NCBI GenBank assembly: GCA_031385045.1 | Contig: JANNBC010000007.1 | Coordinates: 1 to 64,000, forward strand | From: a bacterium | GTDB lineage: Bacteria; Bdellovibrionota_C; UBA2361; CALJRW01 | Reading direction: 5' to 3' | Length of the DNA: 64,000 nt | Part shown: positions 6,001 through 24,000 of the stretch, piece after piece | Layout: each line of letters opens with the position of its first letter | Numbering within the stretch: position 1 is the stretch's first letter | Made by a program: the position numbers

Positions 6001-9000
6001 AGTAGCTTTTTTAGCCTTGGCTGGTGCTTCATCAGTTTCAGCTGACTTGCTTTCTTTTTTAGGCTTAGCATCTTTTTTGGGAGAAGCTTTCTTCTCACTT
6101 CCAGTTGTACCACTAATCTTTGACTCTAAAAAGTCAAAAACTTTTTTAGTAGTAATTTCTGACTGTAGTGATTGAGCAAGCTGTTGATTATTAAGATATA
6201 AATCTTGTAACAATTTCAAATCCATTCCAGAATCTGAAGCTACTTGCTCGACATGACTCTGTAAGTCTTCGCGTGTCGCCATTAACTTTTCTTGTCTAGC
6301 AATTTGCATTAAAGCTAAGCCCGAACGTAATTGCTTTTCAGCTCTCACTTGAACTTCAACAGGCACTTTCTGTAAATCATCAGCTGATGGCTCTTTCCCA
6401 GAAGCTTCTTGGAACATTGCTTTCAATTCTTGATCAACCATTAATTTTGGAACATCAAAATGATTAGCATCTAAGATTGCTTGAATGATTGCCTGTTGTC
6501 GATTCTGTTCCCAATAACGCTGATTTTCCTTTTCAATTGTGGTGGCAAGTTTTGATTTTAAATCTTCAACTGTTGAGGCATCTTGAAACTTTAAGTCTTT
6601 AACAAACTGCTCATCTAATTCTGGGAGCTCCCGTTCCATAATTTCTTCAACTCGCAGATGATAAGTAATCGTCTTTCCAGCTAGAAACTTATGATCACTG
6701 CCTTCCGGATAGGCAATTGTTGTTTCAAAGTCCTTGCCAATTTCTAGACCGATTAATTGATCTTCTAGTTCAGTTGGTAAAAACTTATCACCTAGCGGAA
6801 TATTAATTTTCTCTTCCGCAGAGAACTCTTGATCTCCTTCACGCTCTTGGTAAACACCGACTAAGACATCGCCTTTTTGAACTTTTTTGCGTTTCTCGAT
6901 CTTAGTTAACTTTGCTTTGCTATGAGCAATACGCTTTAAAGCTTCATCAACTTCTTTCGCTCCAACTGCTGGCATTGCTGGTAAAGCAACACTTAACTGA
7001 TCATATCCTTCAATTGTTGGTCGTGGAAAAAAGTAAACGGTAGCTTTAAACTCCAGCGGTTTTTCTGGATCAAGGCTAATAAAATCCACTTCTGGCTGTC
7101 CAATTAAATCAGCAGCTCGCTCCATCTCTTGGATAGTTTTATTTAAGGCTTCACGCGCGACAGTATCAATTGCGTCCATCCGGGCACGACCACCATAGAT
7201 GCCTTCAATCATCTTACGAGGCGCCTTTCCAGGACGAAAACCTTTTAGGTTAGCTTTCATCGAAGCTTTTTTAATTTCTTGCTCATAAGCCAATTTTGTC
7301 GCCTCAACTGGAATTGTGATTAATGCTTCTGTGGTAACAGAATTCACGTTAGTAATTTGTTTATTAAAGTCCATATTTAGATCATTTTTGTTGTAAATTT
7401 TCCTACTGGTATACCAATAGTTCTAGGCATAGTAAACAGTTACAGGAATCAAGAAACTAACAGCCTGATAAGCAATCCACCGTCGCAAAATAGAGATATT
7501 AGTATCTGACTTGCCTGATGATGCTTTGGCAGATGTTGAATCTGCCTTTAGTATACTTGCTATATTAAAGGGAGATTCAACACTTGTAAAAAATTTTAAA
7601 TTGATTATTATGCACTTCCTACTCAATAATTATGCGGGGGTGGTGGAATTGGCAGACACGCTAGACTTAGGATCTAGTGCTTCGGCGTGAGGGTTCAAGT
7701 CCCTCCTTCCGCATTATTTATTTAAACAATTAAAATTGTTTAAATAAATAACAACGCCATAGCACAAAGTGCGACGGCGTGTTCTAAGAATCTTCAAAAT
7801 CTACAATTTATCAAAATTAGTCACCCGTTAATTAATAGGGCCTATAATTCTTAGGGGCACATGCAGATTCTAAAAAATTTCAAATCCTCAATCCCCACCT
7901 ACCGATTCTTAACAAACCAATACTTTTCTTTATAAATACTTCGCAACTCTGGATTCTGTTCCTGTGTATAAGCATCAACAATCAACTTCATTGCTCCAAC
8001 ATCATTAGTATCTAATTTTTGAATAACTAATTTACGAATTTCAACGTTGGGATTTTTTAATAAATTTAACTTTTGAGCTAAACCAATACTGTCGGCATGA
8101 TTTTCGATAAAAAGCGTGGCCATTCGTTCATCTGGGGCAGATAACAAAGCATTTTGTAAGATGTGATTTTGTAAATCTTTTTCAAAAACTTTTAAGGCTG
8201 ATAAAATTTCTTGGGCACTAAAATTTTCAGAACCAGCTAAAACTGCCAAGGGATCCGCAAATTTCTGACGTTGTTCCCATTTGTTTTCTTTTAACCAAGC
8301 AACAATGCCTTTCCCAGGGTTAGATTGTAGATTTCTTGTTGCTAAGCTATCTAAAACCATAATCTTCTCTTGGTCTTTTTCTAAAATTGCTATCAAGGAG
8401 AATAATAGTTCCTCTGCTTGCGGTGACTGCCAAGTAACAATCCGATTTAAGTAAGAAGCATCAATTTTATCAACGGCAACCATAATCAAAGCTTCACTAA
8501 GCTCAACATTTAAATCTTTATTGCCAAGAATTGCATTTAAAAAACGAGCCTTTAGTTTAGAATAAAAATTCTTACTAATTGTTAGTTGCACTAAATCTTT
8601 AAAGACTTGTTGGTCACGCTTAGAAAAGTATTCCAATAAAACTTTCAGGTCATACTCTGTCAGTTTGGAGTAATTTGCCCTGATTTGCTCTGAAAAAATT
8701 TGGTGCAATGCTTCATGGTGCATGATTAATGCTAAGCCTGAAAGCTCGCTCGCTGATTTAATCCCAAAGCTTTCTCCAATTTGACTCTCAAATAAAGGTT
8801 TAAAGCCCTCAGGTTGCTTCAGGTCAAAATATAAAGCTGCAGTTAATCTTGTGGCAATGTTTAAATCTTCTTTATTGATTTTCTCAATTGACTCTAATCT
8901 ATTCTTTAAGGGCATTGCTGGATCTAATAACTTTAATACTTTTCCATAGACGGGGCTTTTTGTGTCTTGATTTCCATAACGCAACCACTGCTCTAACTGA

Positions 9001-21000: not shown

Positions 21001-24000
21001 AAATTAATTTCCAACTCTGGCTCTTCCTCAATTGCCGGCAATTGATTCATGAATTTACTGGTATCAATAATCTGGGTTTGTTTATCAATAGTGTCACGCT
21101 CCCGAGATGCGGGAGCTCCAAAATTTTCTCGAACTTGATTAATAAGACCAGTATCTAATTTTTCAGTACTACCAGAGCGATGAGCACCAGTCATTAAACG
21201 AGAACGCATTTGATTGGCAATATCTGGAGTGAGCATGACCGTCTTATTCCGCGCACGAGCTGCTTTATCATTATTTTCTTTAGTCATAGTTCCTACCTAC
21301 TTAATGCTAATAAAATTAGTACTACAGCGATAATCAAAGCGATTACACTTAGACCAACAATCATTAAAAAATTCTTTAGAATAAAAGGCTTGAGTGCTTC
21401 AATGCTCATGCTCTTCTTATCAGTTTCTTTTTTTACTTCTGGTAAAACGTATCCAGCTGGTGGGGCTTTACGAAGCTTGCCAACAAGTGGAACAACAGCG
21501 ACAGTAATATTATCATACCCACCACGCTCTTTAGCTAGTTCTACCATCTGGCTACAACTTACTTGTGGTGGAAACTTTAAGGCGATATCTAAGATTTCTT
21601 GATCCGAAATCATGCTATAAAGTCCATCGGTACAAAAAATTAAGTAATCTTGATCGCTCGGTGATTCAACATCCCAAATCCAGTAGTTATGTAACTCAAC
21701 ATTTAGTGTTGGGTCAGAGCCTACAGCTCTAGTAAGTACATGCGCTTGTGGATGCTCTAATGCTTCTTCTTCTCGAAGCTGACCTGACTTTACTAACTGC
21801 TGAACATAGGTGTGATCTTCTGTTAATTGCTTCATCCGACCATCACTAATAAGATAAGCTCTTGAATCACCAATGTTTACAATTGTAACTTGTCTATCTT
21901 GAAAAATTGCACCAACAGCAGTTGTTCCCATTTGCGAGAAAGCTTGATTTTGTCGTCGTAAGACAACTATGCGATTAGCCTCAGCAAACGCTTCCTTTAA
22001 AGCATCTTCCGGTTTTAATTGAACTCCAGAATCTAAGGTTCTTTTAACTGAATCGATTACTAATTGGGCTGCAAGCTCTCCCCCTTTTACACCTCCCATA
22101 CCATCGCATACTACCCAAACGAGTCCGGAGGCAGATTCAATTACAGCATAGCGATCCTCATTTAATTCACGTTCACAACCAGGGTCAGTAATTGCCGCTG
22201 GCTGAAAAAATTCATCGCTAAGTGTTTGAGCTTGCTCAAATTTATTTTCAAATTTATTTAGACTTTCGCTATCTAACATACTAATATTTAATAAGTTAAT
22301 TTTTAAGGTATTAACCTCTAAACCCATCGACTGCTTCGACAATAAACTAAACTATTTATTTCATTAGATATGATTCATTTACAAACCATTTGGTTACCAA
22401 AAAGTGTGCCAATCTTTGCTGGTAGTTAACTACTTGAATTTACTGCTTAATTTTAATGAGACAGGGCCCTTATTTAAAACATTGTTTAATTTTATATTGA
22501 ATTCCACTTACTAGAGATACTTAAAATGGTCACAATAAATAAAGTCTACACTAAAAATGGAGACCTAGGACAAACATACTTAGCGAATGGACAAATGATT
22601 GAAAAATCCAGTGCTCGTATTGAATTACTAGCATTACTAGACAGTTTAATGCTGGAAGTTGGATATGCTAATTTTTTAATTTCAACTGAAGCTAAAATAG
22701 AACAAAAAGTTAGCTCTCATTTATTAATGCTACTTAACAGATTATTTGATCAGGGAGCAGTTATTGCATTAACAAGTAAATCCGAGGAGTTGTTGCCGAC
22801 TGAATTGGAAATTAATATTATTGAAAACTGGATTGATCAATTAAATCAAGAGCTGCCACCACTAAAAAACTTCCTTTTGCCACAAGGCAATGCTTTGCTA
22901 AGCCAACTTCATCGTTGTCGAGTACAAAGTAGAATCTTGGAACAAAAGCTCTGGTCTTTTAATATTAAAGAGCCGCTAGAACTGGTTTTTCTAAAGTTTT
23001 TTAATAGAATCTCTGATTACTTTTTTGTAGCAGCAAGATATATTGGACAAGAGTTGAGCTTGCCGGAAGTAATTTGGCAAACGGGTCAAAGACTAAACTA
23101 ATATGTACGATTTCCACCCATTACTAACATCCTTTCCAATAGTCTTAATTTCTCTTGCTGTCTTGTCAGACATAATTTTTTACTTCACTCAGCGAACAAT
23201 CTGGCTTCAATTTAACTATTTTGTACTGCTCTTAGGCATGCTATTTAGCCTGCTCGCATTTTTTTCAGGATTAATTGCCAGTAGCAATGCTAGTGAGTTA
23301 TCTAGCAACTTACCTGAACAACAAATTGCCTACCACTATTCAATTGCAAAACTAATCCTCTTTGCTTATATCCCCTTAATTTTATTTAGATATTTAAGAT
23401 TTGAGCGAAAAATATTTGGTCTAGCCTACTATTTTTTTTGCCTCTTACAGTTCACATTAATTGCCTATACCGGTCACTTGGGTGGAGATTTAGTATTTAA
23501 ACATGGTATCGGTATTCAAACTGATGCCATAACTAATATATCAGAGTGATAGCTTAAGATTAGAAATTTTGCTATAATACCAGAAGTCATGTTAAGTAAA
23601 TCTCGCATCGAAACACAAATTGTGAGCCTTGATAATTGCCAGTTTGAGCAAAGTAAAGAAACTGTAACCTTAACATCGGCTAAGATCCAAGCCCTTCCAA
23701 AAACTAGCGTACAGCTAGACCTTAATCCACTTGCTACTAGCTATGTTCCAAAAAGAAATACTCAGATCAAAGGATTAATTGCATCCAAGCCAGATGACGG
23801 GCCACTTGGCAAACTGATTACAATGTTAGCTAACTTGCTTAAAAGAATTGAAAAGATCTTCTTTGATAAACTAGAAGAAAAACTTCCCCCAACTATCAAG
23901 CTAAAAACTCCACTTCGCAAAAAGAAAAAATCAATCTGGGACAATGAAGAAGTCTTGGAAGATCCTAACCAAAAACAATAAACTGAAATTTATTGGCTTA

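Follow-up and report, generated by a model that had tools for sequence, protein, structure and literature searches.

Does a type III export-gate gene that is embedded among Tad pilus genes encode part of the same machine, or do two systems only share an operon? The question is raised by a gene cluster in a 64,000-nucleotide stretch of DNA (the window; contig JANNBC010000007.1) from a bacterium of Bdellovibrionota_C, a group for which no cultured member was identified. According to passages of two reviews (PMC12428579, PMC10849154), Cystobacterineae are the only group in which Tad/Kil and the needle-less T3SS* are found together. In Myxococcus, Kil recruits T3SS* to prey contacts and pilus tips have been proposed as needle replacement, according to parts of PMC12075869, in which it is left open whether the two form one complex. 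A literature search found no published description of the operon reported here. The initial annotation had described a ten-gene, same-strand cluster, and ten ORFs, all on the minus strand, were indeed present at 7899-22342 in the order first given.

Signalling and Tad genes of the cluster

The first gene encodes a PP2C/Stp1-type Ser/Thr phosphatase (21293-22342; PF00481, and NF033484 at 231.8 bits, above the cut-off) with a C-terminal membrane anchor (hydrophobic segment, residues 326-344), and is followed by genes for an FHA protein (g00368, 20265-21287; PF00498) and a Hanks-type Ser/Thr kinase (18542-20035; PF00069, 177.5 bits). The kinase has a C-terminal membrane anchor as well (hydrophobic segment 450-468), and its catalytic motifs are intact, K51, HRDLKPEN and DFG being conserved in at least 95% of 45 rows. 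The family assignment of g00368 stood, but its C-terminal FHA domain is non-canonical: the G-R arginine is missing in the 11 aligned rows displayed, and the S-x-x-H motif mostly reads SPMH or SPLH. An N-terminal RN[RK]T-V-M-L motif, found in 38 of 44 orthologues, is a candidate phospho-Thr site. Of the two flanking Ser/Thr kinases reported originally, only the Hanks kinase is intact; the other, g00360 (7899-10295, its start codon abutting the sctV stop), is a single-pass membrane pseudokinase. It consists of a kinase fold (1-272), a membrane helix (317-335) and an all-helical HEAT-like domain (345-798), for which HEAT leads scored 0.83-0.85 only. The beta-3 Lys, HRD, DFG and Gly-rich loop of an active Hanks kinase were not found in it: HRD or DFG occurred in 0 of 46 rows, and 38 of 46 have Trp in place of the beta-3 Lys. 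The Foldseek matches listed for its model (pLDDT 85.9) were PknA/PknB-type and eukaryotic kinases, not EssB/YukC.

The Tad genes encode a CpaE/TadZ-like MinD-family protein (17388-18545; AAA_31/CbiA and TIGR03815), CpaB/RcpC (16472-17362; PF16976, and TIGR03177 at 130.4 bits, above the cut-off), the CpaF/TadA ATPase (14884-16431; PF00437 and TIGR03819, probable start Met12) and two T2SSF inner-membrane platform proteins (PF00482), which from the usual gene order we take to be TadB (13368-14339) and TadC (12438-13367). With an Flp pilin and a prepilin peptidase (one per genome in five of five), the Tad pilus set is present. In most relatives an Flp pilin gene lies between the CpaE-like gene and cpaB; it is absent there in this genome (G000), whose flp genes are located elsewhere, and CpaE-like paralogues occur on contigs C2, C13 and C56. 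CpaF is 58-77% identical to its orthologues across the phylum, keeps an N-terminal L-F-S-T-R motif in 62 of 65 and, where linked to sctV, forms one clade (support 97) apart from seven paralogues without sctV. The CpaC N-domain (PF13629) was found in 0 of 91 genomes, by a search that a very divergent pore would escape.

The 544-nt gap with a repeat element between tadB and cpaF was also as described (median gap in the order, 15 nt). The MITE-like repeat (14455-14724; 31-nt terminal inverted arms) folds as a long hairpin (z -6.3) and has 28 further matches at E<=1e-5, 10 of them of at least 150 nt, on 17 contigs. The gap of the sister species (G008) is 465 nt long and shares about 50 nt with it; the repeat is genus-specific and lies outside the conserved unit.

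SctV and a reduced export gate

Between tadC and the pseudokinase gene lies the gene for a full-length, 693-aa SctV/FlhA-family (FHIPEP) export-gate protein (10296-12377; PF00771, 526 bits), with an N-terminal multi-pass membrane domain carrying the FHIPEP loop and a cytoplasmic SctV-C fold. It scored higher with TIGR01399 (SctV, 520.7) than with TIGR01398 (FlhA, 454.3), both under the cut-off, and the cytoplasmic domain of its model (pLDDT 83.7) matches YscV, MxiA, CdsV and FlhA. Residues R132, R139, D143 and D193 align with FlhA R147, R154, D158 and D208, which a passage of PMC7911332 describes as needed for export or as proposed proton-binding residues; all 54 rows retain R132, R139 and D193, with D in 47 and E in 7 at position 143. 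Median identity is 22% in the cytoplasmic domain and 59.5% in the membrane part, and comparison with the sister species gave pN 0.055 and pS 0.776. Judged from these sequence comparisons, SctV is intact and under strong purifying selection.

Its earlier designation as non-flagellar held up. The Tad-linked SctV proteins form one clade (99 in one tree, 100/99 in another), which is separate from the homologous FlhA (100/100), although key charged residues are kept, and branches outside the one that unites injectisome SctV with the myxobacterial proteins (96/90; the Myxococcota in the tree included Archangium but not M. xanthus itself). A tree grouping them with myxobacterial T3SS* SctV was rejected (AU p=0.016), a test that long branches may affect. 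Because SctV has its own non-flagellar clade and the myxobacterial grouping was rejected, the Tad and type III partnership looks convergent with that of Myxococcus. Flagellin was found in none of five genomes (G000, G008, G007, G009, G095), and the marks of a flagellar export apparatus (FlhA clade, flagellin, FliI in the genome) were not found for this protein; flagellated relatives carry FlhA additionally. SctV, SctJ and the SctRSTU set are each encoded twice in this genome, enough for either SctV to have a gate, and sctRSTU and SctN are putatively assigned to this SctV from gene order in relatives.

The injectisome core (SctRSTUV, SctJ, SctQ) is present, in a cluster on contig C8 here and contiguously in relatives; SctQ and SctT of this genome, which have no Pfam match of their own, were assigned by orthology/position. 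SctN/FliI was not recognisable in this genome or the sister species, the ATPase search here returning only F1 alpha, F1 beta and, third, a weak match that is probably Rho, and an SctN with SctL and SctO was not found in this genome; most relatives have an unlinked sctL-sctN. All 13 SctU copies detected in 14 loci scanned are 208-284 aa long (224 aa here) and lack the NP[TS]H switch, and the membrane-anchored two-FHA SctD-like protein is without a periplasmic domain in 20 of 20. Pfam, applied to the gene run and not genome-wide, picked out no needle, tip or translocon protein, and such proteins diverge fast. Neither SctC nor another dedicated secretin was found in this genome, which has two secretins only, namely a PilQ-like protein and the product of a T2SS operon gene; among 45 genomes, secretin family matches numbered two in 37, one in 6 and three in 2.

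Conservation of the gene run and comparison with known systems

The direct joining of sctV to Tad genes was borne out: every one of the 40 loci fetched from this order has tadC next to sctV on one strand, as do 22 of 26 from sister orders (62 of 66 across the phylum). Of 90 order genomes with an SctV match, 40 supplied the order loci, which were chosen for family spread and long contigs, so the sample is not random. Three of the four exceptions stop at a contig edge, and one (G091) truly has no sctV behind its Tad genes. The sctV-pseudokinase pair occurs in 39 of 40 order loci and 17 of 26 loci of other orders. When 80 SctV/FlhA loci were sampled across all genomes (up to 10 kb on each side), only two had Tad genes nearby, both labelled Bdellovibrionota/Bdellovibrionales. 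The arrangement is not due to chance.

The hard-wired genetic link proposed initially is real and larger than stated, since relatives have sctJ, sctQ and sctRSTU in the same run as the Tad genes: there the cluster continues FHA-FHA-sctJ-sctO-like-sctQ-sctRSTU-chaperone, the second half that lies on C8 here. A gene-by-gene check placed cpaF, sctV and sctR on one contig and one strand within about 17 kb in seven genomes (G019, G095, G097, G099, G101, G108, G112), and they are likewise together, by coordinates, in G109 and G119. In our reading, the ancestral operon had this cluster as its first half. Only two of the 40 order loci have the second half directly after the pseudokinase, and across most of this order sctV and sctRSTU are apart; sctRSTU has also moved out of the run in G100, G120, G117 and family f28. 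In f28, SctV is nearly unrecognisable (29-76 bits, versus 674-834 for the three best-scoring copies) and CpaF is still about 63% identical, so a Tad motor persists with a decayed gate.

The cluster has CpaF, TadB/C, CpaB, Flp, dispersed minor pilins and several FHA proteins in common with Myxococcus xanthus Kil (passages of PMC8460266, PMC12075869 and PMC10433427), and it shares SctJ, SctQ, SctRSTUV and a TPR chaperone with T3SS*, which is without secretin, needle and translocon, none of these being recognised in the gene run here either. In Myxococcus, however, Kil and T3SS* occupy three separate clusters and include the Kil secretin KilC, an FHA-fused KilF, SctD, SctI and in-cluster SctN/SctL; here there is one gene run, with no dedicated secretin found, a truncated SctU, a pseudokinase-HEAT protein, no recognisable type III ATPase in the genus and, by Pfam, no FHA domain fused to CpaF. 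The best CpaF match in four of five myxobacteria-related genomes is 27-30% identical (the fifth has none), and that of Archangium gephyra lies about 1.07 Mb from sctV. The analogy with Myxococcus drawn at the outset thus applies to the parts but does not extend to orthology, given this CpaF identity and the position of SctV outside the myxobacterial clade.

Like injectisomes (YscV/LcrD, MxiA, InvA, CdsV), the system has a full-length SctV, SctRST, SctJ and SctQ; unlike them, it has no SctU-C and no recognised SctC, needle or translocon. Canonical Tad/Cpa loci (Caulobacter cpa, the Bdellovibrio Kil-like locus) share cpaE, flp, cpaB, cpaF, tadB and tadC with it, whereas here no CpaC/RcpA secretin was found and type III and kinase genes are embedded. 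The components of the Pseudomonas T6SS cascade are named PpkA, PppA and Fha1. As in that FHA cascade (a passage of PMC8460266), a membrane kinase, a PP2C and FHA proteins occur together, and the two-FHA SctD-like protein recalls Chlamydia PknD-CdsD (part of PMC2765968), both as analogies only. What Abby and Rocha (PMC3459982) describe for the T3SS of Rhizobiales is recruitment of a Tad secretin, not a fused Tad motor.

A proposed contact-triggered machine and its alternatives

Tad motor and gate genes in one conserved cluster, with no recognisable type III ATPase in this genome, point to a hybrid cell-contact machine, similar to the two systems, encoded apart, with which Myxococcus kills prey. 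From gene content and order, the intact SctV and the missing parts we lean, by a little over even chances, towards one contact-triggered inner-membrane machine of Tad pilus motor and stripped-down type III gate, probably acting on other cells. The membrane kinase, PP2C and FHA proteins would trigger assembly at the point of cell contact, as in the T6SS cascade, and CpaF, TadB and TadC would make the Flp filament, the TadE/TadG tip pilins being encoded elsewhere. SctV, with SctRST, the switch-less SctU, SctJ, SctQ and the two-FHA SctD-like protein, would use proton motive force to carry chaperoned substrates over the inner membrane, aided by the unlinked SctL-SctN in most relatives and by no recognisable ATPase in this genus. 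Lacking a recognised needle gene or a dedicated secretin, the system would probably use the Tad filament as substrate carrier, with passage through either the PilQ-like general secretin or GspD, the other one; no outer-membrane exit or substrate was identified. The pseudokinase may be a dedicated scaffold or sensor placing the gate beside the pilus motor. The most likely target would be a contacted prey or host cell, a proposal that overall falls somewhat short of even. A more specific version appears unlikely: a convergent, physically joined hybrid whose SctV lineage lies outside myxobacterial and injectisome gates, with Tad motor and Flp filament replacing the needle and, in this genus, the ATPase complex, the gate working without SctN, SctL and SctO, and the pseudokinase tying it to the pilus motor.

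Two separate machines might instead share a promoter and a kinase/FHA switch because one condition, contact with a surface or a cell, calls for both, with no physical coupling. Such an arrangement fits the ease with which the operon falls apart, its second half being separate in 38 of 40 order loci and sctRSTU having relocated in several families, and Myxococcus Kil assembles and kills without T3SS* according to a passage of PMC12075869. Broken runs, however, keep sctV (40/40) and the pseudokinase (39/40) with tadC and not with sctRSTU, and the gate is without parts for working alone, the SctU switch being absent in 13 of 13 and the SctD-like periplasmic domain in 20 of 20; we regard separate machines as improbable, at about one chance in five. 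The flagellum exports FlgM, a precedent for a gate that serves as a checkpoint device: once the Tad pilus is assembled or contact is sensed, a small anti-sigma-like regulator would be exported to the periplasm, switching on sigma factors. This model needs no outer-membrane exit; after the gate genes, this genome and several relatives carry two genes of sigma-70 type and a conserved gene for a 115-aa protein, and the second SctV cluster also starts with a sigma factor gene. The model is less likely still, as the 115-aa protein has no Pfam match, only weak leads (0.87-0.88) to unnamed Myxococcota proteins, and several loci (L232, L234, L236, L237, L247, L251) have no sigma genes in that place.

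That SctV no longer exports and serves the Tad motor as a proton-conducting or ring-scaffold accessory would agree with its remaining with tadC when sctRSTU move, with the lack of a type III ATPase in this genome and its sister species, and with three SctV-family proteins versus two SctR in G117. G117 is a single genome, 94% complete, though, and a cognate SctR is generally kept, all six f28 genomes having at least three FliP-family genes or matches, the third divergent like f28 SctV; this reading carries a low probability. Least probable is a decaying type III relic beside Tad genes by chance, or a binning or assembly artefact: long branches, truncated SctU, the decay in f28 and the missing ATPase of this genus would suit it, but the arrangement recurs in 62 of 66 loci across the phylum, purifying selection is strong and gate residues are invariant, and a single contig from run X1, possibly the source sample, carries positions 9000-14725 unbroken, from tadB to the pseudokinase.

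The cluster means that an uncultured phylum-level group encodes Tad and type III secretion genes in one run, apparently by convergence, and it names the parts with which a hybrid machine can be tested, the pseudokinase being the candidate linker. The natural loss series (secretin, SctU switch domain, SctO, SctN) is relevant to the minimal type III export gate, to export without the ATPase, for which mutants have so far provided the demonstration (a passage of PMC4230889), and to the secretin-less injectisome ancestor proposed by Abby and Rocha (PMC3459982).

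Gene content of the cluster and its repeat element

The ten minus-strand ORFs described in the initial annotation were recovered, filling positions 7899-22342 of the window (G000:C7:1-64000) in the reading order PP2C phosphatase (g00369), FHA protein (g00368), Ser/Thr kinase (g00367), CpaE-like protein, CpaB, CpaF, a 544-nt gap, two T2SSF proteins, a FHIPEP protein of 693 aa (SctV, g00361) and a kinase-like protein of 798 aa (g00360), the start of which abuts the sctV stop. The T2SSF proteins are presumably TadB and TadC, as named from the usual gene order. A plus-strand tRNA gene (7634-7713) faces the cluster end, and the genome (G000; 2.83 Mb) is rated 94.9% complete. 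Within the cpaF-tadB gap lies an inverted-end repeat (14455-14724) belonging to a MITE-like family of approximately 270 nt that is found genome-wide, also at about 38166-38302, 46990-47242 and 57651-57690 in the window. Because the corresponding gap in the sister species G008 (465 nt) has only about 50 nt in common with it, while the order median is 15 nt, the 544-nt gap represents a late insertion rather than a break of ancestral age. Neither an ORF fitting a small pilin nor an Rfam family of structured RNA was found in the gap, and both candidates were rejected in favour of the repeat. Scans for promoters and terminators found no excess of sites over shuffled sequences (36 versus 48.1 and 10 versus 9.8, respectively), and the contigs of sequencing runs X2-X4 were short and offered no useful bridging of the locus.

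Where two Ser/Thr kinases had been annotated, g00367 is an intact kinase but g00360 is a pseudokinase, with no HRD or DFG motif in 46 aligned rows and Trp in place of the beta-3 Lys in 38 of these. The protein combines a single membrane helix with a large helical domain. At least 150 relatives were recovered with its profile from representatives clustered at 50% identity; in the myxobacteria-related genomes g00360 matched only by its kinase part, and a search with its outer domain produced 4 matches among 7997 scored candidates. For ten pseudokinase relatives, five clusters carried a name, two of these with an organism label (Bdellovibrionota and Deltaproteobacteria). Atlas searches returned leads below 0.9 only. 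The FHA domain of g00368 is present as annotated but non-canonical. A Thr motif is conserved in g00368 (38/44) and an N-terminal motif in CpaF (62/65), and the Thr residues in both may be phosphorylated. The likelier phospho-reader would be a two-FHA protein encoded on contig C8, which has a G-R motif at least once in 20/20 sequences and ends no more than 12 residues past its membrane anchor in the same proportion (20/20).

Conservation of the tadC-sctV linkage and the longer operon

A SctV-family match was present in 90 of 91 genomes of the order, and 40 of these loci were fetched, chosen for family spread and long contigs. Same-strand adjacency was observed for tadC-sctV in all 40, and for sctV-pseudokinase and cpaF-tadB in 39 each. 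From other orders, 26 loci (of 33 genomes) were retrieved through the CpaF orthologue, and were thus not selected for sctV; 22 had tadC-sctV, three exceptions lay at a contig edge, and G091 had other genes at this position. None of seven CpaF paralogue loci carried sctV. In an all-genome sample of 80 SctV/FlhA loci, Tad genes occurred in the available flanking DNA of only two, whose titled records share this arrangement and are labelled Bdellovibrionales and Bdellovibrionota. Most relatives carry a Flp pilin gene between cpaE and cpaB. It is missing from this position in G000, where Flp and TadE each gave five matches elsewhere at E<=0.1, three of each over the cut-off. The small genomes of family f22 (loci L301 and L302, from G092 and G091) each have a very divergent FlhA-like protein, two short SctV-like proteins and only 2 SctR.

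The two-FHA gene directly follows the pseudokinase in 16 of the 26 other-order loci and in 2 of the 40 of this order. Beyond it, relatives continue with a zinc-ribbon FHA gene, sctJ, a 75-aa gene, an sctO candidate (FliJ-like, at a Pfam E of 0.03 only), sctQ, sctR/S/T/U, an 80-170-aa gene and a TPR chaperone; in many cases a 115-aa gene and two sigma factors come next. The stretch from cpaF to sctR is contiguous gene by gene in G019, G095, G097, G099 (one inserted gene), G101, G108 and G112, and by coordinates in G109 and G119. By gene order, the window cluster appears to be half of a longer ancestral operon, the second half of which lies at C8:422-8203 in G000. With its downstream genes this locus (C8:422-10372, L040) comprises two FHA proteins, sctJ, an 81-aa gene, a sctQ-like gene, sctRSTU (U truncated), an 80-aa gene, a TPR chaperone, a 115-aa gene and two sigma-70-type genes.

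The genome also has a second, unlinked non-flagellar set in two parts, likewise without a secretin. C38:43355-47946 (L042) encodes a sigma factor, SctJ, a 93-aa helical protein, a shorter SctV (613 aa) and a TPR protein, an order kept in 13/13 further loci; C13:15472-22213 (L041) holds a SctI-like gene (by eye), sctRST, a SctU N-part, a GAF histidine kinase and a separate 86-aa SctU-C-like gene, as in most of 7 loci. Another region of C38 (5805-12113) encodes a repeat-rich protein of 2102 aa, and the opposite strand has an open frame of 1177 aa there. A second Tad cluster (cpaE, flp, cpaB, cpaF, tadB, tadC, tadG/E-like) lies at C56:75534-82736, an orphan cpaE-cpaB-tadE-tadG module at C2:154770-158253, and further cpaE and cpaB copies at C13:2562-3866 and C52:46088-46981.

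Integrity and origin of SctV, and the missing parts

The SctV model (pLDDT 83.7) comprises the membrane domain and, on the cytoplasmic side, a domain that matches YscV, MxiA, CdsV and FlhA. Residues R132, R139, D143 and D193 align with FlhA R147, R154, D158 and D208; R132, R139 and D193 are conserved in 54/54 rows, and position 143 is D in 47 and E in 7. According to PMC7911332, FlhA R147, R154 and D158 are needed for function and D208 is dispensable for proton binding. The comparison of sctV from G000 with that from G008 gave a pN of 0.055 and a pS of 0.776. SctV is intact. Its cytoplasmic domain varies, with a median identity of 22%. In family f28 (L208-L211, from G103, G104, G105 and G107) the SctV behind tadC is almost unrecognisable, with mainly the FHIPEP loop region left; the idea that it is kept there without a gate was not supported, a third, divergent sctR being present elsewhere.

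Out of 199 distinct family proteins, 104 entered a first SctV tree and 48 a second, after removal of fragments below 560 aa, near-duplicates and five long branches. The Tad-linked SctV proteins formed one clade (support 99; 100/99 in the smaller tree) apart from FlhA and the second SctV, while myxobacteria-related and injectisome SctV grouped together (96/90) with the Tad-linked proteins outside, a position towards which long branches or base composition could push them in a set not including M. xanthus itself. Forcing Tad-linked SctV with the myxobacteria-related group was rejected (AU p=0.016); sisterhood with the second SctV was neither shown nor rejected (AU p=0.156). The identity of CpaF to its best matches was 27-30% in four of five myxobacteria-related genomes, with no match in the fifth, and 58-77% within the phylum, which carries the same message as the SctV tree, against a myxobacterial origin.

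The CpaC-type secretin domain (PF13629) was found in 0/91 order genomes. Of 45 genomes, 37 have exactly two secretin matches (PF00263), 6 have one and 2 have three; those of G000 are GspD within a T2SS operon and a PilQ-like protein, and no Tad secretin was found in this genome. SctU ends before the NPTH domain in 13/13 detected copies (14 loci).

Counts of the FliI/SctN ATPase in the 33 other-order genomes were three in 17, two in 9, one in 6 and none in 1. Although PF18269 had suggested that the whole order is without non-flagellar SctN, the full-length model refuted this: of the 91 genomes of the order, 71 have two ATPases, 14 have one and 1 has three, and the five with none are G000 (95% complete), G008 (97%), G024 (82%), G015 (87%) and G037 (62%). 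A lack of non-flagellar SctN holds only for G000 and G008, in which family, profile and protein searches found neither SctN nor FliI; both also gave no flagellin. A G000 search for SctL gave no match (best E 0.03). In several relatives murJ stands ahead of sctL-sctN; the murJ of G000 lies mid-contig without them. The absence of the type III ATPase in these two genomes is likely, not proven, because both are incomplete. The non-flagellar ATPases examined in relatives were orphan sctL-sctN pairs. Two flagellar-score FliI copies were seen in one order genome (G085:C192 and G085:C140).

In a tree of 52 of 57 SctN-family proteins (four non-SctN matches and one fragment dropped), 12 sampled order copies grouped (100/98) with clade B, represented from another order by one sequence only, and not with five clade-A sequences. 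The sctO candidate occurred in 13 of 15 class operons showing the region; within the order, 2 of 9 loci, with that of G000 included in the nine, gave shortened matches, and G000 gave none. G117 had no sctO in the run, no clade-A-like SctN and no third sctR. This pattern fits the Tad-linked gate having lost its ATPase module, with clade A as its putative ATPase. Counter-cases to this assignment are f23, with a single SctN and two gates, and f28, with three ATPases in 5/6 genomes beside a decayed SctV.

A putative Tad/type III machine, its alternatives and its known relatives

The cluster may encode one contact-triggered inner-membrane Tad/type III machine, an interpretation from sequence that we hold to be somewhat better than even. 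The kinase, phosphatase and FHA proteins would gate machine assembly, the Tad motor would build a Flp filament, and the pseudokinase would join the Tad and gate halves. The stripped gate would export chaperoned proteins into the periplasm by proton motive force, from where the filament would carry them outward via a shared secretin. Salmonella mutants can export without the ATPase (PMC4230889).

The one-machine reading is favoured chiefly because at breaks in the operon sctV remains beside tadC instead of accompanying its own gate genes. Counted against it are the decayed SctV of f28 beside a well-conserved CpaF, the lack of sctV in G091, and the fact that no substrate or exit was identified. 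Linkage reflecting co-regulation only is the foremost alternative, to which we give a minor share of the probability; a sigma-factor checkpoint is rather improbable, an SctV that does not export more improbable still, and a relic hardly credible.

The phylum search returned 124 genomes, all of one class, which is probably GTDB UBA2361. GTDB R226 no longer places this class in Bdellovibrionota proper (PMC13200544), and therefore predation is not implied by the label. The best-matching sequencing run was a freshwater sediment metagenome and may be the sample of origin. Two genes at window positions 47741-49812 resemble, by eye, type 2 isopentenyl-diphosphate isomerase and HMG-CoA reductase; the mevalonate pathway is a marker over-represented in predatory bacteria. 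Window positions 43855-46962 encode a protein of 1035 aa which, judged by eye, begins with a signal-like stretch and holds many ELWxxDGT-type repeats.

In its putative function, the pairing resembles the Kil pilus and needle-less T3SS* of Myxococcus as outlined in PMC12075869, PMC8460266, PMC10433427, PMC12428579 and PMC10849154, but it differs from that system in orthology, secretin, KilF architecture and ATPase. A secretin-less T3SS is described only in Cystobacterineae in the text available of PMC3459982. No description of an sctV-tadC or flhA-cpaF-tadB operon was found in the literature covered, which mostly excluded subscription journals, and the parts consulted of PMC10469934 and PMC9380563 held nothing on an sctV-Tad operon; a Kil survey of Bdellovibrionota (PMC13200544) may bear on the novelty of the Tad part. 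The cluster is a real, conserved and apparently undescribed variant of the pairing of Tad with a needle-less T3SS, and what it adds is a genus with neither type III ATPase nor flagellum, a pattern of ATPase and SctO loss, and a tree test against a myxobacterial origin.
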